Position numbers and translations under genes: made by a program. Positions 6,284 to 36,525 of a DNA stretch of 64,000 nucleotides are shown one piece after another. The first letter of the stretch is position 1. The number at the start of each line of letters is the position of its first letter. The notes under the pieces are model-generated. The model was not told the origin of the DNA. It did not search any database and worked only from the letters and a program-made list of their open reading frames with translations. The DNA comes from Bacteroidales bacterium (GTDB lineage: Bacteria; Bacteroidota; Bacteroidia; Bacteroidales; WCHB1-69), in assembly GCA_017615795.1 (NCBI GenBank), contig JAFZZK010000048.1, forward strand, positions 32,283-96,282. Reading direction: 5' to 3'.

Positions 6284-6346
6284 TGCGTGTTACGTTAGGT
6301 TAGATGGTGGGTAGTTCTTGTTTGATTTAATCTTATTTACCGTTCG

Positions 6347-7288: not shown

Positions 7289-7296
7289 TACTTTTG
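7289..7296 (+). promoter_or_regulatory. -7 box (TACTTTTG) upstream of the carboxyltransferase gene
   Basis: tatgTACTTTTGcacc lies about 60 nt upstream of ATG 7357. Confidence 0.5.
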
Positions 7297-7356
7297 CACC
7301 GCCTCTTTGAGGAAACATAATTAATTGGTATTTACACAAATATATAAATTCAAGCT

Positions 7357-13555: not shown

Positions 13556-13684
13556 AATTATTGTATTTTAAAGATTTGTTTGTTGTCAAAAAAGCGGGTG
13601 CAAAGATAAGAAAAAATCGTGTTGGATGGTTGCCGTAATTTTCTCTTTCTTGTTGGGGAAACAGATTTTTTGAGTGAAGAGAGG

Positions 13685-14482: not shown

Positions 14483-14572
14483 TTTTATATTTGTGAGGTT
14501 TCAGCTGGCAAAATTAATCAAAAAGTCAAATATTTTCGTAATTTTGTACACTTTTTTCTTAAAGAGTTCTAT

Positions 14573-15328: not shown

Positions 15329-15384
15329 AGAAGGCCACAGAGGAATGAATAGTGCAAGTTGTAATCGGATATGTAAGAGTAGAC

Positions 15385-15846
15385 ATGAACGAAAAAGAAA
15401 AAAAATATGATCTCCTGTTGCGGCAGGTCCAGTCCTTGGCCGAAGGCGAGGCCGATGTCATAGCACTTATGGCCAATATGGCTGCCGTTATACACGAAAC
15501 GTTCCGGTTCTGGTGGACAGGGTTCTACCGGGTGATCGGCGATGAGCTGGTGCTGGGGCCATTCCAAGGACCTTTGGCTTGCACGCGTATTGCTCGCGGT
15601 CGCGGCGTCTGCGGCACGGCCTGGCAGGAGGCCCGCACGATCGTGGTTCCCGACGTCCATCAATTCAAGGGACATATAGCCTGTAGCAGCGCCTCCCAAA
15701 GCGAAATTGTGGTCCCCGTTTTCAAGGACCATGAGGTCGTTGCGGTATTGGACATTGACAGCGACCGCCTTGATGTCTTCGATGAGACGGACCGAATCTG
15801 GCTGGAGAAAATCGTAGCCTTCCTGGCTTCGAAATTTGAACACTAA
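15385..15846 (+). CDS. GAF domain protein (free methionine-R-sulfoxide reductase-like)
   Basis: Start at MNEKEKKYDLLL. GFYRVIGDELVLGPFQGPLACTRIARGRGVCGTAW and KGHIACSSASQSEIVVP match the fRMsr/YebR GAF family. Confidence 0.75.
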   Translation: MNEKEKKYDLLLRQVQSLAEGEADVIALMANMAAVIHETFRFWWTGFYRVIGDELVLGPFQGPLACTRIARGRGVCGTAWQEARTIVVPDVHQFKGHIACSSASQSEIVVPVFKDHEVVAVLDIDSDRLDVFDETDRIWLEKIVAFLASKFEH

Positions 15847-15880
15847 ACATCTTTAGTACCCCCATAATCCCCAAAATATC

Positions 15881-17374: not shown

Positions 17375-17386
17375 TATTATAAAAGG

Positions 17387-17437
17387 AAGTCAGGAATTGG
17401 AATTTGCAGACATCCGTTCCTGACTTCTGATTTTCCC
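17387..17437 (+). terminator. Putative terminator hairpin after the DUF4301 gene
   Basis: GGAAGTCAGGAA ...20 nt... TTCCTGACTTC followed by tgatttt. The large loop makes this weaker than a classic terminator. Confidence 0.4.
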
Positions 17438-17447
17438 AATCCCATTT

Positions 17448-18152
17448 ATGAAGGATTCAGCCATCATTTTCAGTTTCTTGGCGGATTTGGTGTCCCATAA
17501 CAACCGCGATTGGTTTCAAGCGAACAAGTCTGCGTACGACAAGGCATGGGGTGTTTTTAACGATTTTTTGGAAGAGTTGATAGCTGAAATAGGCAAGTTT
17601 GAGCCGGCTGTCGCCTATCTTACCCCAAAGGATTGTACGTACCGTATTTACAGGGACTTGCGTTTTTCGCCAGACAAGACTCCCTATAAAGGACATTTCG
17701 GTGCCTACATCAACGAGTGTGGCAAGAAGGCTTTTTATGGCGGCTATTATATCCAGTTGGAGCCGCGACAGGCATTTCTCGCCAGTGGTGTGTGGTGGCT
17801 GCCTACCAAGGAATTGCGTGCCTTGCGGCAGGCCATCATTGACCAGTCCGACACCTACGGCAAGATTGTGAATAATCCTGATTTTAAGGAGATTTGTCCT
17901 GTCATAGGCATGGAGTTCTACAAACGGATGCCCAATGATGTGCCTAAGGATTATCCGCATCCTGAATATGTTATGTGCAAGAACTATACATGTAGTACGA
18001 GCTTGACACCAGAACAGTTTCAGAAGGCAGCCATAAAAGAAATCGCTGAAAAGTTCCGTTTGATGAAGCCTTTCAACGATTTCCTGAAAGAAAACATCCT
18101 CATCAACCTCGAAGAGATGGAGGGGATGAAGGATGTTGTGAAATTCATATAG
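17448..18152 (+). CDS. DUF2461 (TIGR02453) family protein
   Basis: FLADLVSHNNRDWFQANKSAYDKAW and YRIYRDLRFSPDKTPYK are the characteristic motifs. Confidence 0.8.
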   Translation: MKDSAIIFSFLADLVSHNNRDWFQANKSAYDKAWGVFNDFLEELIAEIGKFEPAVAYLTPKDCTYRIYRDLRFSPDKTPYKGHFGAYINECGKKAFYGGYYIQLEPRQAFLASGVWWLPTKELRALRQAIIDQSDTYGKIVNNPDFKEICPVIGMEFYKRMPNDVPKDYPHPEYVMCKNYTCSTSLTPEQFQKAAIKEIAEKFRLMKPFNDFLKENILINLEEMEGMKDVVKFI

Positions 18153-18183
18153 GGGATGCACGGTCGTGCAATCCTACATACTC

Positions 18184-19014
18184 TTAATTTTTCTTAAGAC
18201 CGAGGATGACGCGGGCCTCGTCGGAGGTGGCGACTTCGCGGCCAAGGAGCTTGGCCATGCGGACGACTTTGTCGACGAGCTCGCCGTTGGACTTGGCCAG
18301 AACGCCCTTTTCGAGGTAGAGGTTGTCCTCGAAGCCGACGCGCACGTTGCCGCCCATGACGATGGTCGGAGCGGCGAGGGTGAAGGCATGGCGACCGATG
18401 CCGGTGCTGGTCCAGGTGGAGCCGGCGGGGATGTTCTTCACGAGCCAGCAGAGGTTGTCCACGGTGGCGGGGGTGCATCCGGGCACGCCAAGCACGAAGT
18501 TGAACTGCATGGGGGCGCCGGGCACCTGGCCTTTGCGGGCCATGGTCAGGATGGTGTCGAGGTGACCCATCTCAAAGCACTCGTATTCGGGCTTGATGCC
18601 GCGTTCCAGCATGCGTTTGCCGAAGGCGCGCATGGTCGGCATGGTGTTGTCGAAGATCTCGTCGCCGAAATTGCAGGTGCCGCAGTCGAGTGTGGCCATC
18701 TCCGGGATGGGGGTCGTGTCGGTGGACTGGAGGCGTTCCTCGGGGCTCATGCCGACGGCACCGCCCGTGGAGGGGATCAGGATGACGTTGGGACAGGCCT
18801 TGTAGATGGCGTCTTCGCACTCCTGGAAGCGGGCACGGCTCTGGGTGGGCGTGCCGTCGTCCTCGCGGACATGCAGATGCACAATGGCGGCACCGGCATC
18901 CACAGCCGACTTGGCTTCCTTCACGATTTCCTCAACCGTATAGGGTACCGCAGGGTTCTGTTCCTTGGTGACTTCCGCGCCGCAAATGGCAGCGGTAATT
19001 ATCAGTTTTTCCAT
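18184..19014 (-). CDS. kce: 3-keto-5-aminohexanoate cleavage enzyme (BKACE/DUF849 family)
   Basis: 276 aa. MEKLIITAAICGAEVTKEQNPAVPYTVEEIVKEAKSAVDAGAAIVHLHVRE is typical of Kce/BKACE TIM-barrel enzymes. Confidence 0.8.
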   Translation of the reverse strand: MEKLIITAAICGAEVTKEQNPAVPYTVEEIVKEAKSAVDAGAAIVHLHVREDDGTPTQSRARFQECEDAIYKACPNVILIPSTGGAVGMSPEERLQSTDTTPIPEMATLDCGTCNFGDEIFDNTMPTMRAFGKRMLERGIKPEYECFEMGHLDTILTMARKGQVPGAPMQFNFVLGVPGCTPATVDNLCWLVKNIPAGSTWTSTGIGRHAFTLAAPTIVMGGNVRVGFEDNLYLEKGVLAKSNGELVDKVVRMAKLLGREVATSDEARVILGLKKN

Positions 19015-19144
19015 TTATTAAACTACTAAATTATTAAACTATTAAAAATTAAACTATTAAGCTATTAAATGTAAAATCAATAATCATAAGAACATGTCTG
19101 CTCCATTAATGATTTAATGGTTTAATAACTTAATGACTTTATAA
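19015..19144. repeat. AT-rich spacer made of 8-bp periodic TAYTAANN / TTAATNNN units between kal and kce
   Basis: Units TATTAAAC/TACTAAAT/TATTAAAC/TATTAAAA/(ATTAAAC)/TATTAAGC/TATTAAAT start at 19016, 19024, 19032, 19040, 19048, 19055 and 19063. Units TTAATGAT/TTAATGGT/TTAATAAC/TTAATGAC start at 19106, 19114, 19122 and 19130. Confidence 0.8.
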
Positions 19145-19537
19145 TCAATTTTTCCTTTGGCATTTTTTCGGGGTGACGCAGGTGCCGGAAGCGCGGCATA
19201 CCACGATGGGCTCCTCGAGCACGTCGGCGGCGGAGTCGCTGATGTCAGGACGCGGGGCAATGACCTTGCGGGCTTCGAAGACCATTTTGCGGGAACTGTT
19301 GCCGACCTCCACAATCTCGCCCACGGCCTCGATGAAGTCGCCGGCATAAACAGGCGCAAGGAATTCCACATTGTCGTATGCGCGGAACAGGCCTTCGTCA
19401 CCATCCTGCATGATGAGCAGTTCTGTGGCCACGTCGCCGAAAAGGTCGAGCATACGGGCACCGTTGACCAAATTTCCACCATAATGAGCGTCGTGCGTGC
19501 TCATTCTAAGTCTGATCATTGAAGTTTTCTTTTCCAT
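19145..19537 (-). CDS. kal: 3-aminobutyryl-CoA ammonia-lyase-like hotdog-fold protein
   Basis: Start at [41 protein letters not shown] (ATG 19537). About 130 aa, directly upstream of kce as in lysine-fermentation clusters. The ORF-track N-terminus MYFC... reads through the promoter. Confidence 0.65.
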
Positions 19538-19577
19538 ATAAGTCTTTGTTTTTTGTGAGTGAACGCTTTTGAGGCTG

Positions 19578-19585
19578 CAAAAATA
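19578..19585 (-). promoter_or_regulatory. -7 box (TATTTTTG) for kal-kce
   Basis: Reverse complement of caaaaata, about 40 nt upstream of ATG 19537. Confidence 0.5.
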
Positions 19586-19662
19586 CAAAAAAAGGGAATA
19601 GGAAACAGGTTGTGCCGGCGACTAAAAGCCGATGGTTAATGGCTATTTTTTGTATTTTTGCC

Positions 19663-19670
19663 GTCTGGAT
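19663..19670 (+). promoter_or_regulatory. -7 box (TATTTTTG) for the MBL-fold gene
   Basis: tgTATTTTTGcc lies 10 nt upstream of ATG 19680 and is divergent from the kal promoter. Confidence 0.5.
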
Positions 19671-19679
19671 AAAGATAGC

Positions 19680-20441
19680 ATGCAAGTCACCTTATTAGGA
19701 ACCGGAACTTCGCAAGGCGTGCCCGTAGTGGGCTGCCAATGTGCCACTTGCCAGTCGCAGGACCCGCGTGACAAGCGCCTGCGCACGGCAGCGTTCGTGG
19801 AGACGGGGGATGTCCATATCCTCATTGACGCAGGCCCCGACCTGCGCCAGCAGATGCTCCGTAGCCACATAACCCGCGTGGACGCCATCCTGCTCACACA
19901 CGAGCACAAGGACCACCTTGCCGGCCTCGATGACATCCGCCCCATTTATTTCATGATGAAAGAGCCCATGCGCGTGTATGGCCTGCAACGTGTGCTCAAC
20001 GTGGTCCACAAGGATTTCGACTATGCTTTCAAACCCAATCCCTATCCCGGTGTGCCCGCTCTGCAGCTTTTCCCCGTGCGCGACGATCCGTTCACCATCA
20101 AGGGGGTTGAGATACAGCCTATCCATGTGCGTCACCTTACGCTGCCCATCTTGGGCTATCGCATGGGCAAGTTCGCCTATATCACCGACGGCAGCTTCAT
20201 CGCGGAATCGGAACTGAAAAAGCTGGAGGGACTTGACGTGCTGGTTATCAATGCCCTCCGCATCAAAGAACACTATTCCCACTTCAACCTCGAACAAGCC
20301 CTTTCCATCATCCGGAGACTACAGCCCAAACGCGCCTATCTAACCCATATTTCCGACAAGATGGGCCTCTATGCGGATGTCGCCCCCATGTTGCCGGAGA
20401 ATGTGTTTCTCGGCGTCGATGAGATGACCATTACTGTTTGA
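19680..20441 (+). CDS. MBL-fold metallo-hydrolase (PhnP-like)
   Basis: Start at MQVTLLGTGTSQGVP. N-terminal Cys cluster GCQCATC. HxHxDH motif LLTHEHKDHLAG. Confidence 0.8.
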   Translation: MQVTLLGTGTSQGVPVVGCQCATCQSQDPRDKRLRTAAFVETGDVHILIDAGPDLRQQMLRSHITRVDAILLTHEHKDHLAGLDDIRPIYFMMKEPMRVYGLQRVLNVVHKDFDYAFKPNPYPGVPALQLFPVRDDPFTIKGVEIQPIHVRHLTLPILGYRMGKFAYITDGSFIAESELKKLEGLDVLVINALRIKEHYSHFNLEQALSIIRRLQPKRAYLTHISDKMGLYADVAPMLPENVFLGVDEMTITV

Positions 20442-20524: not shown

Positions 20525-23500
20525 TTAGTTGTCTAATCGTATAATCCGTTTTGTAACGGTGCCCTTGTCTGTTGCGATGCGCAGGAAATAGGTACCTGCG
20601 GCATGGCCCGAAAGGTTGAGCGCGACCTTGCTGTCGTTCGCATTGACAGTGAGCAGCAGCTTGCCGTACGCGTCATACACCTCAATACGTTGAACTTTGG
20701 GCGCAGAACTCTGAACTTGCAAGGTCCCCGTGGTGGGGTTCGGGTAGACAATGATTTGATCATTCAAGACATACTCCTCAATGCCGACATTGACCTGCAG
20801 GTGCAGTGTCACGATACTGTCGCAGCCATACTGGTCTGAGAACAACTGGAGGTAATTACCGTTCTCGCAGTACTCGGTGCCGTTCCATGTATAGCAGCTG
20901 TCGGCCACGGTGACGGAGAACTCGGTGTTCTGCGGGTGATGGATGGTCAGATGCAGGGTGTCGACCTGCGTGCATCCGTGTACATCAGTATGTTGGTAGG
21001 TATAGGTGCCGCTCTCGTTGTAGGTTGTTCCGTTCCAGGTGAAATATTGGCATTCGTCAATGGTGACCGAGGTGTTCTGCGGTTGGTATATGGTTAGGTG
21101 CAGGGTGTCGACCTGCGTGCATCCATGTGCATCGGTGTGCGAGAACAAGTAGTCGCCACTGGTGCTGTATGTCTGTCCGTTCCATGTGAAGCTGCCGCAC
21201 TCGGTGACGGTGATGGCAGTGTGTTGCGGTTGGTACACTGTGAGATGTAATGTCACGGTGCTGTCGCATCCGTAGATGGTCTGGAACTGCTGGGTGTAGT
21301 TTCCGCTCTGGGTGTAGGTTTGTCCGTTCCATATGTAAGATTCACAGGATGTTATGGTGAAATCTTGCGTCGTGGATTGCTGGATGGTCAGGTGTAACGT
21401 GTCCGTCTGCATGCATCCGTTGCTGTTGTAGTAGCTGTAGGTATAGTTGCCGGTGGAGAAATAGGGCACATCGTGCCAAGTGTAGGAGTTGCATGCGATG
21501 ATGGTGTAGGCTTGGTTCTGTGTGTTGTAGAGTGTCAAGTGCAGAGTGTCAACCTGTATGCATCCGTGGAGGTCTGTGTGCGGGTAGGTGTATGTGCCAC
21601 TGGAAATGTACGTGTTTCCGTTCCAGGTGTATGAGCTTCCGCACTCTGTGGCGGAAAAGGCCATGTGTTGCGGATAGTACACGGTGAGTTGTAGTGTCAC
21701 TGTGCTGTCGCAGCCGTGGGAGGTCTGGAAGGATTGCGTGTAGGTTCCGCTTTGGGTGTAGGTCTGCCCGTTCCACGTGTAAGATTCGCAGGCGGTCGCG
21801 CTGAATTCGGTCGTGGCGGAATTGTGGATGGTCAGGTGCAACGTGACGGTGCTGTCGCAGCCGTGGGAGGTCTGGAAGGATTGCGTGTAGTATCCGGTCT
21901 GGGTGTAGGTCTGCGTGTTCCACGTGTAACTGTCGCAGGCGGTCGCGTTGAATTCGCCTGTAACGGAATTGTGGATGGTCAGGTGCAGGGTGACGGTGCT
22001 GTCGCAGCCGTGGGAGGTCTGGAAGAACTGTGTGTAGTCGCCGCTGGCGGAGAACGTGATACCGTTCCAGGTGTAGCTGTCGCAGGCAGTTGCATTGAAT
22101 TCGTTCGTGACGGAATTGTAGATGGTCAGGTGCAGCGTGACGATACTGTCGCAGCCGGTCGGTGTCTGGAGTGTCTGCGTGTAGTTCCCGCTGGACGTGT
22201 AGGTCTGTCCGTTCCATGTGTAGCTGTCGCATGTGGCTGCATTGAATTCGTGCGATACGGCGTGGTGGATGGTAAGGTGCAGGGTGTCGACCTGGGTGCA
22301 GCCGTTGGCGTCAAAGTGCGGATGTGTGTAGGTGCCGCTTTGGACGTACTGCATGCCGTTCCAGTTGTAGAAGAGGCATGCATCCGCGGTGACGGCGGTG
22401 TGTTGCGGATGACGGACGGTGAGGTGCAATATCACGGTGCTGTCGCAACCTTGCGCGGACTGGAAGGTTTTGGTATAGGTGCCGTTGCCAGTGTAGGTCT
22501 GTCCGCCCCAGGTGTAGTTTCCGCAAGAAGTCTCGTAAATCTCATTAACGACGGCGTGGTTGATTGTCAAGTGCAAGGTGTCGACTTGGGTGCAACCATG
22601 CTGGTCGGTGTGTGAGTGCATGTAAGTGCCGCTTTGTAGGTATAGACTGCCGTTCCAGCTGTAGAACTCGCAGGCCGAGATTCGTGTCGAGGCGTGTTGC
22701 GGATGGAAGACGGTCAGGTGCAGGGTGACGATGCTGTCGCAGCCCAGCGGTGTCTGGAGATTCTGGGTGTAGTTGCCGCTGGACGTGTACGTGATACCGT
22801 TCCACGTGTAGCTGTCGCAGGCAGTTGCGCTGAATTCGTGGGCTACAGCGGTGTTGATGGTGAGGTGGAGTGTTACCGTGCTGTCGCAGCCGCCCGCAGT
22901 CACGAGGGTCTGCACATATTCACCACTCTGGTAGTAGGTCTGTCCATTCCAAGTGTAGGAGTTGCATGCGGTATGATTGAACTCGTTGGTCTTGGAATGG
23001 TTGATGGTCAGGTGTAACGTCACCGTGCTGTCGCAGCCGGCAGAGGACTGGAAGGTCTGGCTGTAATTGCCGCTGGCGGAGAACGTGATGCCGTTCCAGG
23101 TGAAGTTGTCGCAGGCAGTTTCGTAGATGTGGTTGGTCTGGGCATTGTTGACGGTCAGATGCAGGGTGACGGTGCTGTCGCAGCCGTGGGCAGTGAAGAA
23201 GCGTTGTATGAAGTCGCCGCTGCGATTGTAGGTCTGCCCGTTCCAGGTGTAAGGGCCGCAAGAGGATACGGTTAGATCGGTGGACTGGTCGCCGAATATG
23301 GTGAGATGGAGGGTGTCGACCTGCGTGCAGCCATTCTGGTCGTTGTGCGAGTGCAGGTGGGTGCCGGTCTGGGTGTAAGTCTGCCCGTTCCAGGTGTAGC
23401 TGTGGCAGTTGCTGGCAGTATAGGAGAGATGCCGCGCCTTACGGATGGTGAGATGGAGGGTCACTGTGCTGTCGCAACCATGGATGGTCTGGAAATATTT

Positions 23501-26500
23501 CACATAGTTTCCACTTTCGTAGTAGGTGGATTCGTTCCAGGTGTAGCTGTCGCAGTTTGTGGCACTCCATTCCGTGGAGACGGAGTGGTGGATCGTGAGG
23601 TGGAGCGTGACAGTGCTGTCGCATCCGGCGGCGGTACGGAAGTGCTGTATGTAGTTGCCGCTGTTGTAGTAAGTGTTGTTGTTCCAAGTGAAGAGGTCGC
23701 AGGCTGTGGCAGACCATTGCGTGGAAGTCGGATGGTTGATGGTGAGATGCAGGGTGTCAACCCTCATGCAGCCGTATGCTTCCTCGCGGGCGAAAGTGTA
23801 AGTCCCGCTCTCATAATAGGTCGTGTTGTTCCAGGAATACAGGTCGCAGGCACTGACGGTGGTGGATTGATGCTGCGGGGTTATGATGGTGAGATGAAGG
23901 ATGACGGTGCTGTCGCAGCCGTTGACGGTCTGGAAGTATTGTGTGTAGTCGCCGCTTTCGGTGTAGATGGAGTCATTCCAGGTGTAGCTGTTACAGCCGA
24001 ATTGCGTGAGATTTGTGGTAGCAGGTTGGAAGATCGTAAGGTGGAGAGTGTCAATCTGGGTGCAACCATTGGCATCGGGATGAGAGAAAGTGTAGTTGCC
24101 GGAACGGTTGTAGGTCTGACCGTTCCATGTATAGGATCCGCAGGCGCTGGCAGCGAAGGCGGTGTGCTGCGGACGGAAAATGGTGAGATGCAGTGTGTCG
24201 ACCTGCCAGCAGCCGTGGTCGTCGCGGTGGGTGTAGGTGTACGTGCCGCTCTGTGTGCGGCGCATGCCATTCCAGTAGTAACTGTTACAGGCTGAGATGG
24301 TGGTTGACTGGTGCTGCGGGTGGTTGATGGTCACATGGAGGGTGTCGACCTGTGTGCATCCGTGTGCGTCGGGATGGCTGTAGGTGTAATCGCCGCTCTC
24401 GGTGTAGGTTTGCCCATTCCAGGCCCAGGTATAGCTGTCACAATTGATGGCGGTGAAGGAGGTGTGGCGCGGTTGGAAGATGGTAAGTTGTAGGGTTACG
24501 ATGCTGTCGCAACCGTGAATGGTCTGGAAATGCTGCACATATTCGCCGCTGCGGGTGTAGGTGACGCCGTTCCACGTATAGCTTTCGCAGTTGGAGGCAC
24601 TGAACTGACTTGTCGTTGAACGGAATATGGTGAGGTGCAAGGTGTCGACTTGGGTGCAACCGTTGATGTCAGCATGGGCAAACGTGTAAGTGCCGCTTTG
24701 GGTGTAGGTGGTGCCGTTCCATGTGTAGTTGTCGCACTGACTCACGGAGATGGCTTCGTGTTGGGGGGAGAAGATGGTGAGATGCAGGGTGTCGACTTGG
24801 GTGCATCCGTGCTCGTCGGGATGACTGAACGTGTAGACGCCGCTTTGGGTGTAGGTGGTGCCGTTCCAGACGTAGGAAAGACACTCGCTGTCTGTGAAGG
24901 CCTCATGCTGCGGATGGAAGACGGTCAGCTTGAGGGTGTCGACCTGGTTGCAGCCGTTGGCGTCGGGGTGTGCATAAGTGTACACGCCACTTTGGGTGTA
25001 GGTGGTGCCGTGCCAGGTGTAACTGTCACAAACGGCATCTTCCGTTATGGTGGGCATGGGGTGGTTTACGGTTAAATGCAGGGTGACAATACTGTCGCAT
25101 CCGGTGGCAGCTGCGCCAATCATGACAAACGTGGGCGCATTAGTGCTCTGGGTGTAGGTGGTGCCGTGCCAGGTGAAGCTCTCGCATGCCACGGCGGTTT
25201 CAATGCCTTGTGCGGGGATGCAGTTGCCTACAACGACGGTGATGGAGGCTGTTTGACTGCTGCAGCCGTTGGCGCTTCCGGTTACATAGTAGGTCGTGGT
25301 ACTTGCCGGTGACACGGTGATGGATGCTGTATGCGATCCCGTGGACCATACATAGTTGTCGGCACCGGAAGCTGTGAGGGTCGTGCTCTCGTAAAGCGGG
25401 ATGGTTGTGTTGCCCGTGACGGACACTGTCGGAATAGGACGAATGGTCAAGTGGAGGGTGTCGACTTGGGTGCATCCGTTGGCGTCCACATGGGCGTACG
25501 TGTAGGTGCCGCTTTGGGTATAAGTGGTGCCGTTCCACGTGAACGAACCGCATTCGCTGGTTGTGATGGCGGCATGTTGCGGATGGAAGACGGTCAGGTG
25601 GAGGGTGTCGACCTGCGTGCAGCCGTAAGCGTCAGCATGGGCGTAGGTATAAATGCCGCTTTGGGTGTAGGTCTGGCCGTGCCAGGTGTATGCATTACAT
25701 TCGCTGGCAGATACGGCAGTGTGATGCGGATGGCGGATGGTGAGATGCAGGATGACGGTGCTGTCACAACCGGCATTTGTCTGGAAATGCTGGGTGTAGT
25801 CGCCGCTTTGGGTGTAGGTCTGTCCGTTCCAGATGTGCCTGTCGCAGTCGGTCAGGGTGAGGTGCCGGGTGACGGGGTTGTCCACTGTCAAGTGCAAGGT
25901 GACGGTGCTGTCGCATCCGTTGGCAGCGGCACCAGGGTAGGTGTAGGTGGCGGTGTAGTTGCTGCTGGGGTAGTTGACACCGTGCCATAAGTATGGTCCG
26001 CAGGAATGAACGGTTTCAATGCCGAAGACGGGCGTGCAGGCGTGCGTGGAGACGTAGACTTGGACGGGTTGGCTGACACAATTGCCGTTGTAGCCCGTGA
26101 CGGTGTAGGTGGTTGAAGCGGTGGGCGTGACGGTGATGCTGCTGGTGTGCGCACCGGTGGACCAGACGTAGCTCTGTGCGCCGGAGGCGGTGAGCGTGGT
26201 GCTTTGACCTTCCAATACGCTGGTGTTACCCGAGATGGTTACGTTCGGGATTGGCGTGATGGTCAGGTGCAGCGTGTCGACTTGCGTGCAGCCGTGTGCG
26301 TCAGTATGGGAGTGTTTGTAGGTCCCGCTTTGCGTGTAGGTGGTGCCGTTCCAAGTGTATTGGCCGCACTCGCTCACAGTATAGGCTTGATGTTGAGGAT
26401 TGTAGATGGTCAGATGCAGCGTGTCGACCTGTGTGCAACCGTTGACATCGGTGTGTTGGTATAAGAAGTTGCCGCTTTGCAGGTAGATGGTGCCGTTCCA

Positions 26501-29500
26501 AATGTAGGATTCGCACGCATTGACAGTGTAAGCCTTATGCTGCGGCTTGTAAATGGTGAGGTGCAAGGTTACAATGCTGTCGCAACCGTTGGCAGCACCG
26601 TGGGGAATGGTGTAGGTTGCGGAATTGGTGCTTTGCGTGTATGAGATACCATGCCAGGTGTAATTGTTGCAGGCTGTGATGGTCTCAACGCTTTGCGATG
26701 GAATGCAACTGCCTACCGTGACGGTTACGCTGGCCTGCTGGCTGGCGCAACTACCGTTGTAGCCCGTGACGGTGTAGGTGTTTGTTGCGGTGGGTGTGAC
26801 GGTGATGCTGCCAGAGTGTGCGCCGGTGGACCAGACATAGCTCTGCGCGCCGGAGGCGGTGAGCGTGGTGCTTTGGCCTTCAAGGATGCTGGTGTTGCCC
26901 GAGATGGTTACAACCGGAATTGGAATGATGGTCAGGTGCAGGGTGTCGACCTGTGTGCAGCCGTGCGCGTCAGGATGGGAATACTGGTAGGTTCCGCTTT
27001 GCGTGTAGGTGGTGCCGTTCCAGGTGTATTGGCCGCACTCGCTGACAGTATAGGCTTGGTGCTGTGGAGTGTAGATGGTCAGGTGCAGGGTGTCGACCTG
27101 TGTGCAACCGTGCGCGTCAGAATGGGAGTACCTGTATGTTCCGCTTTGGGTGTAGGTGGTGCCATTCCAAGTGTAGGATTTGCACGCGTTGGCAGTAAAT
27201 GCTTGATGCTGTGGATGGAATATTGTCAGATGCAAGGTCACGATGCTGTCGCAGCCGTTGGCGGCACCATGGGAGATGGTGTAGGTCGCAGAGTTGGTGC
27301 TTTGCGTGTAGGTGACACCATGCCACGTGTAGCTGTCGCAGGCTGTGGCTGTCTCTATACTCTGTGCGGGAATGCAGTTGGTCACCGTGACGGTGATGGT
27401 GGCAGGCTCGGTGCTGCAACCGTTCGCCATTGTGCCTATGACAGTGTATGTGGTTGTGGTGGATGGACTGACCGTGATAGACGAGGTGTTCTCATTGTTT
27501 GGATACCAATGATACGAGTTGGCACCACTTGCACATAGCGTGGTGCTGGTTCCTGAATAGATGGTCGTGTTGCCGCTGACGGTAAGCTCGTGTACACCGC
27601 AGTTTGTCGTAAAGGTTTTTTCAGCACCATACTGGGTGCCGGCAGCGGTAGTGGCGTAGGCTCTTACATAATAGGTCATGTTCTCGGCAAGCCCCGTAAG
27701 GTTGCTGGTGAAGGTGCCCGTGCCGGTTCCATTGGTGGTGTGACTGCCGCTGATGGTGGGGTTGTGCGATGAGCTCCAGCAAATGCCTCTGGCCGTGACC
27801 GGCGAGCAGGCGTCGGACGTGACTGTGCCGCCGCAGGTGGCTGTCGAGGTGGTGACGTTTGTGACATTGGCCGTCGTGACGGTTGCAAGAGAAACTGGTG
27901 TGACGGTGACTGTGACCGTGGCGTTGCCCGTGCAACCATGACTGTTGGTGCCCGTGACTGTATAAGGGGTGTTGGCAGTCGGATTGACGGTGATGCTGCT
28001 GCCCGAAGCCCCGGTGCTCCAGGTGTAGCTGTTGGCGCCGGAAGCGGTGAGCGTGGTGCTGGCGCCGCTGCAGATGCTGGTGTTGCCGCTGATGGTGACT
28101 GTGACGGCGCTACAGCCCGTCTTGAAGCTCTTTTCGGCACCATATTGGGTGCCGGCTGCGGTGGTGGCGTAGGCTCTTACATAATAGGTGGTGTTTTCGG
28201 TAAGTCCTGAGAGATTACTGGTGAAGGTGCCCGTGCCGGTTCCATTGGTGGTGTGGCTGCTGGTGATGGTGGGGTTGTGGGATGTGCTCCAGCAGACACC
28301 TCTGGCCGTGACGGGCGAGCAGGCGTCGGACGTTACCGTGCCGCCGCAAGTGGCTGTTGAGGTGGTGACGTTTGTGACATTGGCCGTCGTGACGGTGGCA
28401 AGGGAGGCCGGCGTGACAGTGACCGTGACCGTGGCGTTGCCCGTGCAGCCATGACTGTTGGTACCCGTGACTGTGTAGGGGGTACTGCTGGTCGGATTGA
28501 CGGTGATGCTGCTGCCCGAAGCCCCTGTGCTCCAAGTGTAGCTGTTGGCACCGGATGCGCTGAGCGTAGTGTTAGCACCGCTGCAGATACTGGTATTGCC
28601 ACTGATGGTGACTGTGACGGCGCTACAGCCCGTCTTGAAGCTCTTCTCCGCGCCATATTGGGTGCCCGCGGCAGTGGTGGCGTAGGCTCTTACATAATAG
28701 GTGGTGTTTTCGGTAAGTCCTGAGAGATTACTGGTGAAGGTGCCCGTGCCGGTTCCATTGGTGGTGTGGCTGCCGGTGACAGTGGGATTGTGCGATGTGC
28801 TCCAGCATACACCTCTGGCCGTGACTGGCGAGCATGCATCGGACGTGACCGTGCCGCCGCAAGTGGCCGCTGAGGTGGTGACGTTTGTGACATTGGCCGT
28901 CGTGACGGTGGCAAGCGAGGCTGGCGTGACGGTGACCGTGACCGTGGCGTTGCCCGTGCATCCATGGCTGTCGGTGCCCGTGACTGTATAGGGAGTGCTG
29001 CTGGTCGGATTGACGGTGATGCTGTTGCCCGAGGCTCCGGTGCTCCAAGTGTAGCTGTTGGCGCCGGAAGCGGTGAGCGTAGTGTTAGCACCGCTGCAGA
29101 TACTGTTGTTGCCACTGATGGTGACTGTGGGAGCAGAATGGATGGTGAGGCGCAAAGTGTCCACCTGGTGGCAATGGAGACTGTTCATGAAAGCATAGGT
29201 GTAAGTGCCGCTGGCATTGTAAGAGGTGCCGTGCCAAGTATAGGTGCCTCCGCATTGATTTCGTGTGGTGACCGTGCCGGGTGTCGTGCAGCCGCCTGTT
29301 ACGGAAACACTTCCGTTGACACTGGATTGGCAACCGTCACTCCATACCGCCCATACGGTGTAGTTGTAGTCGCCGTTGATACCGACATTGTCTGTATAAC
29401 TGGTCGAAGCGGTGTTGTTGACAAGTACGCTTCCGTTTCGGTCGATTTGGTAGTGGTCGAAAGTGGGGTTGATGTCTTCGACAGATGCTTTGATAGCAAA

Positions 29501-32500
29501 GCTTCTGCTGTTGTTGGATGTCCAATTGTCGGTGCCATTGCGATAGACGGCACTTTTGTTCGCAGTGGCAGTAGAACCGAATCTTGGAGAAGCACAATCC
29601 TGCGAGTATTCTAAATAAATGCCAAACCATAATTCCTGATTGGCGTCAATGACCACAGGTGTGTTTAATGTTACAGTGTTCCATACCCAGTCGTTGATGG
29701 AATAGATCGGAACCACTTGCTCTGCCACCAAAGTGCCGGCGTTCCTGTTGCTGGCTGTGGATGACCAAGTGCCGCCTTTGAAAACCACGACTTTGCAAGT
29801 CGTTAAATAATCCGTGTTGGGTATGAATGAGATGGCTGTGATTTTCTTGTTGTGGTAGGGTGCGAGGTCGGAGGATTCGAAACGTTGCAAAGCATATAAT
29901 GTTAAGTTGCTGTATTGGATGTAGCTGTTCATATTCGTTACATGCCATGTGAGGTCGTATGTGTTGTCAGACATGGCATCGGGGGCGTCCCACGTGGCTG
30001 TCACGGTAGCCCCGGAGGTCGGGGCAGAGAGTGTTAGGTTTTGGGGCGGATTGCAGTCGCCTGTGCCTTGCCCCACAAGTTGCACCTGCGCCGTGGCACT
30101 GCCGCTGGTCAAAGTGATGGTGCCGAGATCGGGCGTCGTGGGATAAGTGGATGGATTGTAACGCACATACAGCGTCCCGCCACTTGCGGGCAGTGTCTTG
30201 GATGTGGAGAAGCTGACAGAGTCGGTGCTGATCTGGAATGGACTCGTGACGGTGGCTTGAATGCTGGATGTGAGTCCCATACCGCTGATGTTCGTCTTCT
30301 TCACTTCGACATTGAAACCGCTATTGTTGTGGAGTACCAACATGTCGGGATTAGGGTAGATGCTGGCGACGTTCGTGATGGTTAACGAAGCGGAAGAGGA
30401 ACACCCGTTGTCCCATACGGCGGCCACGTTGTAGTGATAGGTGTTGGTTGAGCCTACAACATCATCGTAGTAGGTGTTGCTCGTGTTTCCTAAAACGGTT
30501 CCATTGCGCGATATCTCGTAATGAGAGAGTGTTTGTGTGTTTTGTATGGTGCCCAGAATACAGAGACTGTAATCGGTCCTTTCTCTCCATGATGAGTTGC
30601 CCAAGGCTCCTAGTCCTATGATAGCTCCTTTTTGAGGCTCGGCGGTAGGTCCTAAAGGAATGGGGTGTGATGCGGTAGATTCCAAATAGATGCCGAACCA
30701 CAGTTCTTGAGATGCATCAATGGAGACAGGCGTGGTGAGGGTGAAGGTGTTCCACGTATTTGGGGTGACGGATGAGATGGGAATGGTTTGCTCATAGACC
30801 AAAGTCCCAGGTTCAATGGAAGTTCCCATGTAGCTGCCTCCCTTGAAAACGAGCAGTTTGACCATCGTTGCGCCATCCACAATATAAGAGGTGATCTTTG
30901 TCAATGACTGGCCATGGTAAGGAACCAAGTCCGCTTCGCAGAATCTTTGTAATAGTGTCAATTGACTTGTGCCATAGCCAGACCTAAGGCCCAGGGCTCT
31001 ATCATTCCAACTCAATGTGTGTTCAGTTGGGTCGACTTGGGGCGCATTCCACGAAAGGTGGAGGTGTTGTAAGTCGGAGGAGGAAATGGTGAAGTTTTGA
31101 GGTGGCAGGCAGGTGATGGTACGGGAGAACCCCTGAAGATCTATGCTGGCTGATTTGGAACCGGAAACGAGGTTTACAGTTCCCGTGTTGCTTTGGTTGC
31201 CGGGAGCGGGTTGGTATCGCACGTAAAAGTTGCCGCCGTTAGAGCTTAATGTGATGGATGTGCTGTAGTTTACGGAATCCAGGCTGACGGCAAAGGGACT
31301 GCTGGTGGTGATGGTGATGTTGTTGGTCAGGTTGTGGGTCAGCACGTTTATCTTGCGACCTTCCGTGATAACGCTGTTCTCAGAGAAAAAATTCAAGGCG
31401 TTGATATTGGTCAGAAGAATGGGGTTGGCAGCACTCATGTTAAAGATAGCACCTTGTTCATCGTTGAATACATAGGGACTAGGGTTGATTTGGTTGATGG
31501 TATAATATCCGTTTTGATTGCATCCCCATCCGAAATTGAAATGGAAATAGTTGTCAACCGTATAGCCGTCGCAAATGAAGGCGTGCCCGCCAGTCCCTCG
31601 GCCATGATAAAGGAGAGGTCTGGCCTGGTTGAGTTCGGCTTTGAGGTCGGATATCCACAGGGCGTCGTTGCTGACGCTGCTGCGGTTTCGGTGTGTGCAG
31701 GAGTAGCCGAAATAGGTGTTGAATGCATCGGCAGCATCCGCACTACTGGCTCCACTGCCGCCATTAGCGCTCAAGCCGTAGTCCATGTCCACGCTGACAC
31801 CGCAATGGTACATCAGCTGGGCCACCTCGAACACTTGTGCGGCACTGCTGCTGCTGTTGAGCGAGGTCGGCATGAGGTCATAATTGTAGGTGGTGGCGCC
31901 AAAGTTGGCAGATTGTACTCCATAAGTGGGATGGGTGTAGCTGTGGCTTCCGATACCATGGGACGGGTATTTCCAGTACCACAGAAGCTGGGCCATGGCT
32001 GTGGCAACACAACCTGTTACAGTCTGTGTGCTGCCGTCCATAGGACATAAACTGTTATAGTAGGGCGATTGGTTCCAGCAGGTCTGTATAAGCGGCGCGA
32101 CCACAACAGACCCGTATCGCGTGGGTGTGAAGTTAGACGATGCCAACCGGCTCCAACTGGCCTCGGCATCGACGTTGGTGTATGTCGACGAATTCATTAC
32201 CGACTGTATCTCGGCAGTGTATCCCATTAGCCATTCGTCTAATTGTACGGGTATGTTTTGCGGGTCAAACTGCCCCTCGGTGGAGTAGCCCAATACCGGC
32301 TTCACTCGGTTGTCGCCGCTGACAATCACATAGCCGTCGCCTACGTTGTAGATATACAGGCAGATGGCTGAATCCCCTCTCAAAGTCGCAGGAGCAGACT
32401 TGTAAGTTTTTACCAATATTGGTGTGGGTGTCAACCCTCTGTCGTTAGCGCCAGATCCGATGCGCTCGCGATAAAAGTTGGCCGCCACACGCTTGCTGAG

Positions 32501-32578
32501 CAAGGTGTCGATAGGGGCGGATGTCAGGATTAGCGAGCTTAACAGGAGACAAAATGTCAGGAGTAATGATTTCTTCAT
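20525..32578 (-). CDS. Giant (4017 aa) secreted C10-family cysteine peptidase with repeat stalk and T9SS C-terminal sorting domain
   Basis: Signal peptide MKKSLLLTFCLLLSSLILTSA. C10 propeptide-like segment ICLYIYNVGDGYVIVSGDNRVKPVLGYS. Catalytic Cys context TGCVATAMAQLLWYW and catalytic His context GTGGHAFICDGY, as in SpeB, interpain and PrtT. Next come two copies of a ~345-aa Ig-like/lectin-like/FN3-like module, three 171-aa near-identical units and 41 copies of a 49-aa two-Cys module. The ORF ends with a type A T9SS CTD (IIVYPNPTTGTLQVQS...GTYFLRIATDKGTVTKRII). Confidence 0.9.
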   Translation of the reverse strand: MKKSLLLTFCLLLSSLILTSAPIDTLLSKRVAANFYRERIGSGANDRGLTPTPILVKTYKSAPATLRGDSAICLYIYNVGDGYVIVSGDNRVKPVLGYSTEGQFDPQNIPVQLDEWLMGYTAEIQSVMNSSTYTNVDAEASWSRLASSNFTPTRYGSVVVAPLIQTCWNQSPYYNSLCPMDGSTQTVTGCVATAMAQLLWYWKYPSHGIGSHSYTHPTYGVQSANFGATTYNYDLMPTSLNSSSSAAQVFEVAQLMYHCGVSVDMDYGLSANGGSGASSADAADAFNTYFGYSCTHRNRSSVSNDALWISDLKAELNQARPLLYHGRGTGGHAFICDGYTVDNYFHFNFGWGCNQNGYYTINQINPSPYVFNDEQGAIFNMSAANPILLTNINALNFFSENSVITEGRKINVLTHNLTNNITITTSSPFAVSLDSVNYSTSITLSSNGGNFYVRYQPAPGNQSNTGTVNLVSGSKSASIDLQGFSRTITCLPPQNFTISSSDLQHLHLSWNAPQVDPTEHTLSWNDRALGLRSGYGTSQLTLLQRFCEADLVPYHGQSLTKITSYIVDGATMVKLLVFKGGSYMGTSIEPGTLVYEQTIPISSVTPNTWNTFTLTTPVSIDASQELWFGIYLESTASHPIPLGPTAEPQKGAIIGLGALGNSSWRERTDYSLCILGTIQNTQTLSHYEISRNGTVLGNTSNTYYDDVVGSTNTYHYNVAAVWDNGCSSSASLTITNVASIYPNPDMLVLHNNSGFNVEVKKTNISGMGLTSSIQATVTSPFQISTDSVSFSTSKTLPASGGTLYVRYNPSTYPTTPDLGTITLTSGSATAQVQLVGQGTGDCNPPQNLTLSAPTSGATVTATWDAPDAMSDNTYDLTWHVTNMNSYIQYSNLTLYALQRFESSDLAPYHNKKITAISFIPNTDYLTTCKVVVFKGGTWSSTASNRNAGTLVAEQVVPIYSINDWVWNTVTLNTPVVIDANQELWFGIYLEYSQDCASPRFGSTATANKSAVYRNGTDNWTSNNSRSFAIKASVEDINPTFDHYQIDRNGSVLVNNTASTSYTDNVGINGDYNYTVWAVWSDGCQSSVNGSVSVTGGCTTPGTVTTRNQCGGTYTWHGTSYNASGTYTYAFMNSLHCHQVDTLRLTIHSAPTVTISGNNSICSGANTTLTASGANSYTWSTGASGNSITVNPTSSTPYTVTGTDSHGCTGNATVTVTVTPASLATVTTANVTNVTTSAATCGGTVTSDACSPVTARGVCWSTSHNPTVTGSHTTNGTGTGTFTSNLSGLTENTTYYVRAYATTAAGTQYGAEKSFKTGCSAVTVTISGNTSICSGANTTLSASGANSYTWSTGASGSSITVNPTSSTPYTVTGTNSHGCTGNATVTVTVTPASLATVTTANVTNVTTSTATCGGTVTSDACSPVTARGVCWSTSHNPTITSSHTTNGTGTGTFTSNLSGLTENTTYYVRAYATTAAGTQYGAEKSFKTGCSAVTVTISGNTSICSGASTTLTASGANSYTWSTGASGSSITVNPTANTPYTVTGTNSHGCTGNATVTVTVTPVSLATVTTANVTNVTTSTATCGGTVTSDACSPVTARGICWSSSHNPTISGSHTTNGTGTGTFTSNLTGLAENMTYYVRAYATTAAGTQYGAEKTFTTNCGVHELTVSGNTTIYSGTSTTLCASGANSYHWYPNNENTSSITVSPSTTTTYTVIGTMANGCSTEPATITVTVTNCIPAQSIETATACDSYTWHGVTYTQSTNSATYTISHGAANGCDSIVTLHLTIFHPQHQAFTANACKSYTWNGTTYTQSGTYRYSHSDAHGCTQVDTLHLTIYTPQHQAYTVSECGQYTWNGTTYTQSGTYQYSHPDAHGCTQVDTLHLTIIPIPVVTISGNTSILEGQSTTLTASGAQSYVWSTGAHSGSITVTPTATNTYTVTGYNGSCASQQASVTVTVGSCIPSQSVETITACNNYTWHGISYTQSTNSATYTIPHGAANGCDSIVTLHLTIYKPQHKAYTVNACESYIWNGTIYLQSGNFLYQHTDVNGCTQVDTLHLTIYNPQHQAYTVSECGQYTWNGTTYTQSGTYKHSHTDAHGCTQVDTLHLTITPIPNVTISGNTSVLEGQSTTLTASGAQSYVWSTGAHTSSITVTPTASTTYTVTGYNGNCVSQPVQVYVSTHACTPVFGIETVHSCGPYLWHGVNYPSSNYTATYTYPGAAANGCDSTVTLHLTVDNPVTRHLTLTDCDRHIWNGQTYTQSGDYTQHFQTNAGCDSTVILHLTIRHPHHTAVSASECNAYTWHGQTYTQSGIYTYAHADAYGCTQVDTLHLTVFHPQHAAITTSECGSFTWNGTTYTQSGTYTYAHVDANGCTQVDTLHLTIRPIPTVSVTGNTTIPLYESTTLTASGADNYVWSTGSHTASITVSPASTTTYYVTGSANGCSSQTASITVVVGNCIPAQGIETAVACESFTWHGTTYTQSTNAPTFVMIGAAATGCDSIVTLHLTVNHPMPTITEDAVCDSYTWHGTTYTQSGVYTYAHPDANGCNQVDTLKLTVFHPQHEAFTDSECLSYVWNGTTYTQSGVYTFSHPDEHGCTQVDTLHLTIFSPQHEAISVSQCDNYTWNGTTYTQSGTYTFAHADINGCTQVDTLHLTIFRSTTSQFSASNCESYTWNGVTYTRSGEYVQHFQTIHGCDSIVTLQLTIFQPRHTSFTAINCDSYTWAWNGQTYTESGDYTYSHPDAHGCTQVDTLHVTINHPQHQSTTISACNSYYWNGMRRTQSGTYTYTHRDDHGCWQVDTLHLTIFRPQHTAFAASACGSYTWNGQTYNRSGNYTFSHPDANGCTQIDTLHLTIFQPATTNLTQFGCNSYTWNDSIYTESGDYTQYFQTVNGCDSTVILHLTIITPQHQSTTVSACDLYSWNNTTYYESGTYTFAREEAYGCMRVDTLHLTINHPTSTQWSATACDLFTWNNNTYYNSGNYIQHFRTAAGCDSTVTLHLTIHHSVSTEWSATNCDSYTWNESTYYESGNYVKYFQTIHGCDSTVTLHLTIRKARHLSYTASNCHSYTWNGQTYTQTGTHLHSHNDQNGCTQVDTLHLTIFGDQSTDLTVSSCGPYTWNGQTYNRSGDFIQRFFTAHGCDSTVTLHLTVNNAQTNHIYETACDNFTWNGITFSASGNYSQTFQSSAGCDSTVTLHLTINHSKTNEFNHTACNSYTWNGQTYYQSGEYVQTLVTAGGCDSTVTLHLTINTAVAHEFSATACDSYTWNGITYTSSGNYTQNLQTPLGCDSIVTLHLTVFHPQHASTRISACEFYSWNGSLYLQSGTYMHSHTDQHGCTQVDTLHLTINHAVVNEIYETSCGNYTWGGQTYTGNGTYTKTFQSAQGCDSTVILHLTVRHPQHTAVTADACLFYNWNGMQYVQSGTYTHPHFDANGCTQVDTLHLTIHHAVSHEFNAATCDSYTWNGQTYTSSGNYTQTLQTPTGCDSIVTLHLTIYNSVTNEFNATACDSYTWNGITFSASGDYTQFFQTSHGCDSTVTLHLTIHNSVTGEFNATACDSYTWNTQTYTQTGYYTQSFQTSHGCDSTVTLHLTIHNSATTEFSATACESYTWNGQTYTQSGTYTQSFQTSHGCDSTVTLQLTVYYPQHMAFSATECGSSYTWNGNTYISSGTYTYPHTDLHGCIQVDTLHLTLYNTQNQAYTIIACNSYTWHDVPYFSTGNYTYSYYNSNGCMQTDTLHLTIQQSTTQDFTITSCESYIWNGQTYTQSGNYTQQFQTIYGCDSTVTLHLTVYQPQHTAITVTECGSFTWNGQTYSTSGDYLFSHTDAHGCTQVDTLHLTIYQPQNTSVTIDECQYFTWNGTTYNESGTYTYQHTDVHGCTQVDTLHLTIHHPQNTEFSVTVADSCYTWNGTEYCENGNYLQLFSDQYGCDSIVTLHLQVNVGIEEYVLNDQIIVYPNPTTGTLQVQSSAPKVQRIEVYDAYGKLLLTVNANDSKVALNLSGHAAGTYFLRIATDKGTVTKRIIRLDN
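20785..25060 (-). repeat. Uninterrupted run of 29 tandem 147-bp (49-codon) units inside the giant gene
   Basis: Units 13 to 41 of the two-Cys module (x-C-x-S-Y-T-W-N-G-x-T-Y-T-x-S-G-x-Y ... G-C-[TD]-[QS]-x-[DV]-T-L-H-L-T-[IV]) follow one another with no other domain between them. Boundaries are approximate to within ~20 bp. Confidence 0.8.
27590..29128 (-). repeat. Three near-identical tandem 513-bp (171-codon) units inside the giant gene
   Basis: The marker string ggtgactgt recurs at 29120-29128, 28607-28615 and 28094-28102, which is an exact 513-bp period. Each unit encodes TVTISGN(N/T)SICSGA...YTVTGT(D/N)SHGCTGNATVTVTVTP...ARG(V/I)CWS(T/S)SHNPT...TTYYVRAYATTAAGTQYGAEK, with only a handful of substitutions between copies. 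Confidence 0.9.
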
Positions 32579-36387: not shown

Positions 36388-36427
36388 ATAGTGTTTTATT
36401 GTTTTTTTACAGGTTTTCAAGAAACGG

Positions 36428-36435
36428 CAAAAATA
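36428..36435 (-). promoter_or_regulatory. -7 box (TATTTTTG) for dsbD-lnt-(giant gene)
   Basis: Reverse complement of caaaaata, about 40 nt upstream of ATG 36387. I see no other TAnnTTTG box between here and the giant gene start. Confidence 0.5.
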
Positions 36436-36525
36436 CAAAAAATAATCGAGAGGAGGACTTTATCAAACGTGAAATGTTGATAAAATGCAAAAATGGAATC
36501 CAGATGCATTTCCGTGAAAAAAATG

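Follow-up and report, generated by a model that had tools for sequence, protein, structure and literature searches.

A single giant gene at positions 20525-32578 (minus strand) was characterised in a 64,000-nucleotide stretch of DNA, hereafter the window, from a rumen-type Bacteroidales bacterium (GTDB lineage Bacteroidota; Bacteroidia; Bacteroidales; WCHB1-69; assembly GCA_017615795.1, contig JAFZZK010000048.1, positions 32,283 to 96,282). Based on the list of open reading frames (ORFs), the translation, and the Pfam and NCBIfam domains, it encodes a C10 protease of 4017 residues that is secreted through the type IX system (T9SS) and bears a long repeat stalk; all of its features discussed below lie on the same strand. 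The hydrophobic N-terminus of the translation suggests a signal peptide spanning approximately residues 1-21 (MKKSLLLTFCLLLSSLILTSA; 32516-32578). It is followed by an Inhibitor_I69 propeptide (residues 50-124; 32207-32431; PF13734, 62.6 bits against a cutoff of 25, E = 5e-17), which precedes the Peptidase_C10 catalytic domain (residues 168-359; 31502-32077; PF01640, 192.2 bits against a cutoff of 26, E = 1.5e-56). The motifs GCVATAMAQ, containing Cys190, and GGHAFICDGY are intact and presumably hold the catalytic residues. The closest solved relative of this head is interpain A of Prevotella intermedia (3bba; E = 4e-42), with both motifs aligned, and database relatives are named either "C10 family peptidase" or "PrtT". 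At the opposite end, residues 3944-4013 (20540-20749) constitute a T9SS type A C-terminal sorting domain, recognised by both Por_Secre_tail (53.6 bits, cutoff 27, E = 2.8e-14) and TIGR04183 (54.8 bits, cutoff 23, E = 6.9e-15).

The protease domain is separated from the stalk by an internally duplicated beta-rich region (residues ~406-735 and ~758-1092; 29303-31363), the two copies sharing 40.6% identity over 340 residues in a self-BLAST (E = 4.6e-69). Its parts are Ig-like, fn3-like, and weakly DUF4082-like, with only weak Pfam scores. The region is 75% identical in an ortholog with a short stalk; the duplication is ancient, and the region may be a substrate- or ligand-binding part of the head.

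The stalk is built from a module of 49 residues with two Cys, which a preliminary description, made by eye from the sequence, had counted in 41 copies. Delimited by the terminal motif [TI][LV]x[LV][TQ][ILV], the units number exactly 41 between residues 1098 and 3929 (20792-29287). Each closes with T-L-H-L-T-I or something very similar, and all 41 were recovered by a profile made from them. Thirty-seven are 49 residues long, three are of 50 and one is of 51. Their arrangement differs from the 12 grouped and 29 uninterrupted units previously described, the true layout being 1+3+3+4+30, i.e. 11+30, with an Ig-like spacer before each later group. Unit 1 (residues 1098-1146; 29141-29287) is isolated and atypical, belonging to the type A defined below, and has a capping Cys just upstream at residue 1097. 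It is followed by a spacer region (residues 1147-1737; 27368-29140) in which four Ig_7 domains, of the CHU_C-associated Ig-like family, alternate with three fn3-like domains; Pfam PF19081 matched the Ig_7 spacers in four stretches (36.5 bits, cutoff 27.3), and the fn3 call on the whole protein was weak. Units 2-4 (26927-27367) are then separated from units 5-7 (26258-26698) by an Ig_7-like spacer (residues 1885-1960; 26699-26926) with an F-G-loop Cys at 1944 and a linker Cys at 1958. A second such spacer (residues 2108-2183; 26030-26257) precedes units 8-11 (25442-26029), and a third (residues 2380-2455; 25214-25441) precedes units 12-41 (20792-25213), a run of 30 uninterrupted modules of which the last is devoid of the canonical Cys13 and has Cys16 and Cys25. 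In total, 41 modules, seven Ig_7 and three fn3-like domains make up a stalk of ~2,800 residues.

Two types of unit were distinguished by the residues that follow the second Cys, type A carrying C-[TNIMWH]-[QR]-[VIT]-D-T-L and type B carrying C-D-S-[TI]-V, which reproduced the 21 and 20 units respectively reported earlier. The co-conservation attributed to type A was also borne out: of the 19 type A units with a length of 49 residues, 17 have P3, 15 have Q4, 15 have H5, and H33, D35 and H/N37 are each present in 16, whereas the same positions (3, 4, 5, 33, 35, 37) in type B are mostly S/A, V/T, T/E/S, F, T and mixed. The His content is 8.3% for type A and 5.2% for type B, compared with 4.3% over the entire protein; His46, within the TLHLTI motif, is common to both types. 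A third flavour, B', comprises units 2, 5, 8 and 12, each of which opens the group behind one of the last four Ig-like spacers, and is marked by an insert of three residues (QSTNSATY) together with an additional Cys ~12 residues before the first one. The three short groups thus read B', A, A for units 2-4 and again for units 5-7, and B', B, A, A for units 8-11. Mean amino acid identity is 59% among type A units, 48% among type B units and 38% between types. In the nucleotide sequence, the array was picked up in part only by Tandem Repeats Finder (periods 147 and 294 bp, 67-85% matches), and the repeat is therefore old and diverged rather than recently amplified.

The division into two types is, as had been supposed, a functional or structural one and not simple drift, since it is conserved in other proteins. 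In 214 type-A-like units from ~30 other proteins, chosen solely by Q41 and D43, P3 was present in 90%, H5 in 74%, H33 in 93%, D35 in 97% and N/H37 in 93%, with H46 falling within the same 74-97% span. Positions 4, 33, 35, 40, 41 and 43 are mutually the strongest covariation contacts, in agreement with the earlier guess that the His and Asp residues converge. This discriminating cluster is located at the N-terminal end of the module, by the junction with the preceding one, and consists of V/T4, F33, T35, D40-S41 and V43 in type B and of Q4/H5, H33, D35, T40-Q41 and D43 in type A. The difference between the types is thus a coordinated swap of one spatial cluster, in which a hydrophobic end-cluster becomes a polar His/Asp/Gln one, and type A is a genuine subfamily. 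A scan of GTDB genomes, one per species, for [HNY]GC[TMN]Q[VI]DTL yielded 162 stretches, the best 80 of which all lie in uncultured Bacteroidales genomes, often at several loci per genome. The sources of these 80, where a record title names one, are the rumen or other gut compartments of ruminants and the faeces of horses, the host animals being yak, goat, sheep, water buffalo and horse. Among the matches listed, type A is restricted to Bacteroidales of the herbivore gut, and is a marker of that lineage.

The preliminary description did not recognise the module as a named family, and curated models gave the same answer: neither Pfam-A (2025) nor NCBIfam (20.0) matched the 49-residue module in the whole protein or in fragments, and relaxing the threshold to E <= 1 for a fragment of three units brought up nothing, Ig_7 (PF19081) included. 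The module is nonetheless very abundant. When 1.84 billion representative proteins were searched exhaustively with HMMER and the 41-unit profile, 23,704 of them matched at E <= 1e-3, with up to 77 matched stretches listed per protein. The stricter threshold of E <= 1e-30 was passed by 5,199, and many of the matches are giants of 2,000-7,000 residues. An initial search with a 49-column profile had retrieved only fragments of 51-89 residues from Niastella, Limnovirga and Saprospiraceae. All named sources are Bacteroidota, with Bacteroidales and Paludibacteraceae alongside these three taxa. The 150 best matches carry a median of 27 and a maximum of 58 copies per protein, and their arrays often stop 81-88 residues short of the C-terminus, directly before the sorting tail. 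The heads of the homologs are diverse (Peptidase_C25, Peptidase_C10, fn3 arrays), their tails are Por_Secre_tail or CHU_C, and their public names refer only to other domains or are hypothetical. In three homologs (P0077, P0095, P0045), hmmscan reported "significant" whole-protein E-values with no matched stretch over the arrays, and DUF6504, SUEL_Lectin, ATE_N, CysR_MRC2_N and others appeared as spurious families over homolog arrays. Such scores without stretches are sums of weak repeat hits, and could mislead the automatic annotation of giant proteins.

The fold of the module was examined by structure prediction and by covariation. The AlphaFold2 model of three units, computed with an alignment of the protein's own 3-unit windows, reached a mean pLDDT (predicted local distance difference test) of 92.8 and showed five strands per unit, at approximately residues 5-13, 16-18, 21-23, 27-34 and 40-50; the single-unit model reached 87.4. 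Foldseek placed the stem of GhpA at the top of the matches to the 3-unit model (E = 5e-6, low TM score), followed by generic tandem Ig and Rib rods. Mean-field direct-coupling analysis was applied to 4,418 units from the 150 best matches and the present protein. The couplings define a hairpin of strands 4 and 5 (register i+j = 74; pairs 28-46, 30-44, 32-42 and 33-41) and a parallel pairing of strand 1 with strand 5 (register i to i+37; pairs 4-41, 6-43, 7-44/46, 9-46 and 12-49). W18, Y23 and Y29 contact L45 and L47, and these five residues are the core of the module. With strands of 9-11 residues, each module would be ~3 nm long as a rough estimate, and 41 modules with their spacers would exceed 100 nm. 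Comparison of the module with the protein's own Ig_7 spacers by hhalign aligned module positions 4-48 with a probability of 46%, placing strand 1 on the Ig B strand, in conflict with the parallel register of strands 1 and 5 obtained from covariation. On account of this modest probability and of the register conflict, the module is not claimed to be a truncated Ig_7.

The disulfide within each unit that the preliminary description had envisaged gives way to a different arrangement. When 3,238 pairs of neighbouring units were analysed together, the coupling between Cys13 of unit n and Cys39 of unit n+1 was the strongest of all (6.11), with further junction contacts at 11(n)-1(n+1) and 14(n)-2/3(n+1). 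The same two Cys are lost together (odds ratio 46, p = 4.5e-56), and in 16 of 16 arrays the unit just before the sorting tail is devoid of C13 yet has C39, as compared with 95.7% of internal units retaining C13. An additional Cys near position 1 occurs in 14.8% of array-first units against 0.5% of internal ones. Since strands 1 and 5 are parallel, Cys13 lies beside position 49/50 and Cys39 beside 1/2, at opposite ends of the module. In the present protein, capping Cys are found at residues 1097, 1735, 1958, 2181 and 2453, each Ig_7 F-G-loop Cys could accept C13 of the preceding unit, and all stalk Cys find a partner under the inter-unit rule. These statistics point to conserved Cys pairing between units and not within them, from which formation of the bond itself is deduced. 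A classical cysteine-knot-like repeat, in which each unit closes its own Cys13-Cys39 bond, would be the default assumption for extracellular repeats with two Cys at fixed spacing. It is very improbable here, given that co-loss within one unit is absent (odds ratio 0.14-0.43), that the within-unit pair 13-39 is not among the top couplings, that the terminal units keep C39 without C13, that the parallel strands set the two Cys of a unit about one strand length apart, and that the leftover Cys at the Ig_7 junctions would have no partner. A further trend was observed at the junctions in units of proteins with at least three type A units, namely that the residue after Cys13 of unit n tends to be Glu when unit n+1 is of type A and Asp when it is of type B (odds ratio 5.6, p = 9e-6). 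It is not evident in the window's own units, and it fits junction packing of neighbouring modules.

Next to Cys39, each of the 41 units holds one conserved candidate site for O-glycosylation. The general O-glycosylation motif of Bacteroidota is D-(S/T)-(A/I/L/V/M/T) (PMC8550257), and glycans have been localised on DSI, DST, DTV and DTL (PMC8729774). The sequon occupies positions 40-42 (DS[T/I]) in 20 of 20 type B units and 43-45 (DTL) in 21 of 21 type A units. Together with a non-conserved one at position 20 of a type B unit, the array has 42 sequons, against 12.1 +/- 3.2 in shuffled sequence. Family-wide, the sequon is at position 40 in 76% of non-A units; A-like units have it at 43 in 213 of 214 cases and at 40 in none. 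The conserved "GCDS" is best read as a putative disulfide Cys adjoining a predicted glycosylation sequon, and the stalk is probably glycosylated.

Stalk length varies even between near-identical proteins. The closest ortholog of the head (P0190) is 75% identical over 1097 head residues, and its stalk has only 5 units, all of type B, against the 41 described here, with the same cap Cys and a last unit devoid of C13. Within one cluster at 90% identity, members differ by insertions or deletions (indels) of exactly 49 or 98 residues inside the array: P0312 equals P0040 minus exactly one unit of 49 residues, the pair being otherwise 100% identical, and P0310 and P0311 differ from both by array indels of 49 and 98 residues. 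These indels and the 5-unit ortholog indicate that the stalk changes by whole modules among close relatives.

Among known systems, the array is a tandem beta-module stalk of T9SS surface proteins, and is closest to the stem of GhpA (PDB 9flp and related entries). GhpA is also a giant T9SS cargo with a long run of small beta (Ig-like) repeats. For this grappling-hook protein of Aureispira, cryo-electron microscopy (cryo-EM) resolved disulfides that link Ig-like domains lying near each other, and all the domains showed glycan densities (bioRxiv 10.1101/2024.01.29.577165). Its stem thus provides an experimental precedent for disulfides between neighbouring domains, a likeness that for the present module is a statistical prediction. 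Both proteins have the hairpin motif G-x-Y-x5-(D/N)-x-N-G-C-(D/x)-S, and GhpA was the only PDB sequence match (E = 1.4e-14, summed over many partial matches), with only module positions ~22-44 aligned. However, the GhpA repeats are longer Ig-like domains whose matched stretches are ~83 residues apart, and they assemble into a heptameric hollow tube with a hook head and PorP/PorE-like neighbours; the present head is a protease, and no PorP/PorE-like basal-body gene was found among ten neighbouring genes scanned. Ig_7 (PF19081), a spacer in the same protein, has the motifs S-Y-x-W and Y-x-V-x-G-x3-G-C-x5-V-x-V in common with the module, which is ~23 residues shorter and without at least one strand. 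GhpA excepted, the literature search retrieved no description of the module or of a T9SS repeat with inter-domain disulfides.

Periscope-type stalks of Gram-positive bacteria, such as those made of Rib or SHIRT domains, combine a functional head, a rod of tandem small beta domains and a cell anchor. The present protein has the same layout and the same variation in length by whole repeats, and Rib was among the weak fold matches. Nevertheless, the Gram-positive stalks belong to another phylum and are anchored through sortase and LPXTG rather than T9SS. The present repeats are diverged (38-59% amino acid identity, 67-85% at the DNA level) rather than near-identical, and appear to be stabilised by inter-module disulfides and probable O-glycans. 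As regards the head, the protein is a clear member of the C10 proteases with T9SS tails, which include interpain A and the PrtT-type "thiol protease/hemagglutinin"; most of these have ~700-1,800 residues among the matches listed, to which the present protein adds a stalk of ~2,800 residues.

The 41 units probably form a variable-length, disulfide-laddered and likely glycosylated stalk of a C10 protease displayed at the cell surface. By analogy with other proteins that have type A sorting domains, this one would be exported across the inner membrane by Sec, and would be folded, oxidised and probably O-glycosylated in the periplasm. Its C-terminal end would be held at the cell surface, and the stalk would project the N-terminal protease away from the cell. 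Within the stalk, Cys13 at the C-terminal end of unit n would bond to Cys39 at the N-terminal end of unit n+1, and ~40 interleaved, non-consecutive disulfides would staple consecutive modules. The array starts would be capped by the extra Cys, the array ends lack Cys13, and the Ig_7 F-G-loop Cys would serve the spacer junctions. The rod would probably be coated with glycans at regular intervals; in type A modules the sequon is shifted by three residues, with V4, F33, T35, S41 and V43 replaced by Q4/H5, H33, D35, Q41 and D43.

Several points weigh against this picture. Stalk rigidity, attachment to the cell and protease activity are all inferred, and the Cys pairing is a reading of covariation and co-loss statistics. 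The units used for covariation came from the 150 proteins with the highest scores, a sample biased towards relatives of the present protein. Foldseek gave no significant PDB match for the single-unit model (best E = 0.38), which, together with the weak hhalign result, makes an Ig-derived origin of the module at most tentative. The abundant T9SS cargo of P. gingivalis avoid O-glycosylation (PMC8729774), so use of the sequon by the present organism is not guaranteed, and S41 lies on the same face as the core residues and may be only partly exposed.

Two other functions were considered for the modules. Type A units might be metal-binding, with H5, H33, D35, H/N37, D43 and perhaps Q41 and H46 holding Zn2+, Ni2+ or Ca2+ at each A-type junction; the array would then stiffen in response to metal or pH, or would capture metal. 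The residues concerned are conserved in the 214 A-like units of other proteins, the pairs 33-41, 33-43, 35-41 and 4-35 are among the top couplings and hence predicted contacts, the preceding unit's Cys13 is followed by the Glu shift noted above (odds ratio 5.6, p = 9e-6), and many adhesins of the GhpA kind are stated to bind Ca2+ (bioRxiv 10.1101/2024.01.29.577165). A metal site in type A is possible from this pattern, and as an explanation of the modules it is unlikely. Searches of Pfam, NCBIfam and PDB sequences matched no known metal-site motif or family, D43 doubles as the Asp of the shifted glycosylation sequon, and the strand register puts H5 on the opposite sheet face from H33. The H33-D43 and D35-Q41-Q4 contacts can moreover be ordinary hydrogen-bond or salt-bridge pairs. 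Since type B has a plain hydrophobic or neutral cluster at the same place, alternative packing accounts for the data. The shift of the sequon, along with which the residues around it change, is a simpler competing account, and polar packing required by a sequon Asp at position 43 explains the His/Asp cluster just as well.

The modules might instead be small units resembling lectins or carbohydrate-binding modules (CBMs), with Y16, W18, Y23 and Y29 binding plant or host glycans in a multivalent adhesin. They are rich in conserved Tyr and Trp, the relatives of type A come from the rumen and herbivore gut, and many T9SS giants are adhesins, as discussed for SprB in the GhpA work (bioRxiv 10.1101/2024.01.29.577165). 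Yet the contacts of W18, Y23 and Y29 with L45 and L47 bury them in the core rather than on the surface, and a sugar-binding face made of these aromatic residues was rejected for that reason. The heads that precede the module in the various proteins are also very unlike one another, its place is beside the sorting tail, its copy number varies freely among close relatives, and no CBM or lectin model in Pfam or NCBIfam matches it. An adhesive role is accordingly improbable.

The surface stalk favoured above could, in a more far-reaching and rather doubtful form, be a two-rail covalent ladder. The backbone would be one rail, running from strand 5 of unit n to strand 1 of unit n+1, and the other would consist of disulfides between strand 1 of unit n and strand 5 of unit n+1. 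With the disulfides interleaved, only ~23 backbone residues per two modules would bear load; with so short a load-bearing path, the rod would hardly lengthen even with all modules unfolded, and would be nearly inextensible. Type A modules would introduce a His/Asp junction that switches stiffness or binds metal near rumen pH, and with its ~40 non-consecutive disulfides the protein would depend to an extreme degree on disulfide isomerisation in the periplasm. To our knowledge, such a ladder-type mechanical design is undescribed for bacterial surface stalks.

A very abundant repeat is thus without a Pfam-A or NCBIfam model. Many of the proteins that carry it are among the largest of Bacteroidota, and the annotation of these giants is consequently confined to their ends. 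With a model of the family, thousands of T9SS cargo proteins from gut, rumen and environmental metagenomes would be better annotated. The rule proposed here, of one inter-module disulfide and one O-glycan sequon per 49 residues, suggests how Gram-negative bacteria may build long, protease-resistant and possibly inextensible stalks, and would extend the cryo-EM findings on GhpA to a smaller and far commoner module. It also calls for caution in fragment design and modelling, where self-contained disulfides should not be assumed for two-Cys repeats. Type A is a candidate for metal- or pH-dependent behaviour.

The genomic neighbourhood is ordinary chromosomal DNA with a guanine-cytosine (GC) content of 46-57%. 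Directly upstream of the giant gene, with a gap of 24 bp, lies lnt (apolipoprotein N-acyltransferase; 32603-34267, minus strand), preceded after 83 bp by dsbD (thiol:disulfide interchange; 34351-36438, minus strand), and the three genes possibly form an operon. DsbD feeds into the isomerisation of disulfides in the periplasm, a process that would be required by a protein with ~40 non-consecutive ones. A conserved functional unit of dsbD, lnt and the giant gene was rejected, and their adjacency is treated as coincidence, because the locus of the closest ortholog (L079) has neither DsbD nor Lnt nearby.

Divergent from dsbD, lnt and the giant gene, a second T9SS cargo of 794 residues is encoded at 36587-38971 on the plus strand, with a transglutaminase core, Big_1 and Por_Secre_tail. 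At the ortholog's locus, positions 5362-7821 encode an 819-residue T9SS cargo (faint Big_1, Por_Secre_tail), also divergent beside the short-stalk ortholog. The similar size and orientation suggest that the pairing of such a cargo with a C10 protease gene may be conserved. The same locus contains a second C10 peptidase of 983 residues (1033-3984) and, directly downstream, a giant gene of at least 2,728 residues (12632-20275); C10 and giant genes appear to cluster in these genomes. The remaining neighbours scanned in the window include genes for a DUF349 protein and for a protein with a metallo-beta-lactamase fold.

Further observations concern parts of the window apart from the giant gene. The segment 55700-64000 has a GC content of 46-48%, as opposed to 51-57% elsewhere, and holds only small or medium ORFs on the minus strand, six of which were searched against Pfam with no match in any; it may be a foreign or fast-evolving island. 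An Rfam scan of the whole window detected no RNA family. The non-coding gap between an M16 peptidase gene (49906-52812) and a DUF7033 gene (54058-55536) contains a nearly perfect 23-bp tandem repeat (53823-53988; 7.2 copies, 97% matches; CAATCCCGGGACCGATCGTGCGC) and a 22-bp tandem repeat (52889-52962; 3.5 copies). An AT-rich 8-bp tandem repeat of 6.9 copies (TATTAAAC) is intergenic at 19016-19069, flanked by a 287-residue ORF ending at 19029 and by the metallo-beta-lactamase-fold gene at 19632-20441. Finally, an in-frame tandem repeat of 21/42 bp is located at 39348-39452, near the 5' end of the DUF349 gene (39156-41414, plus strand).

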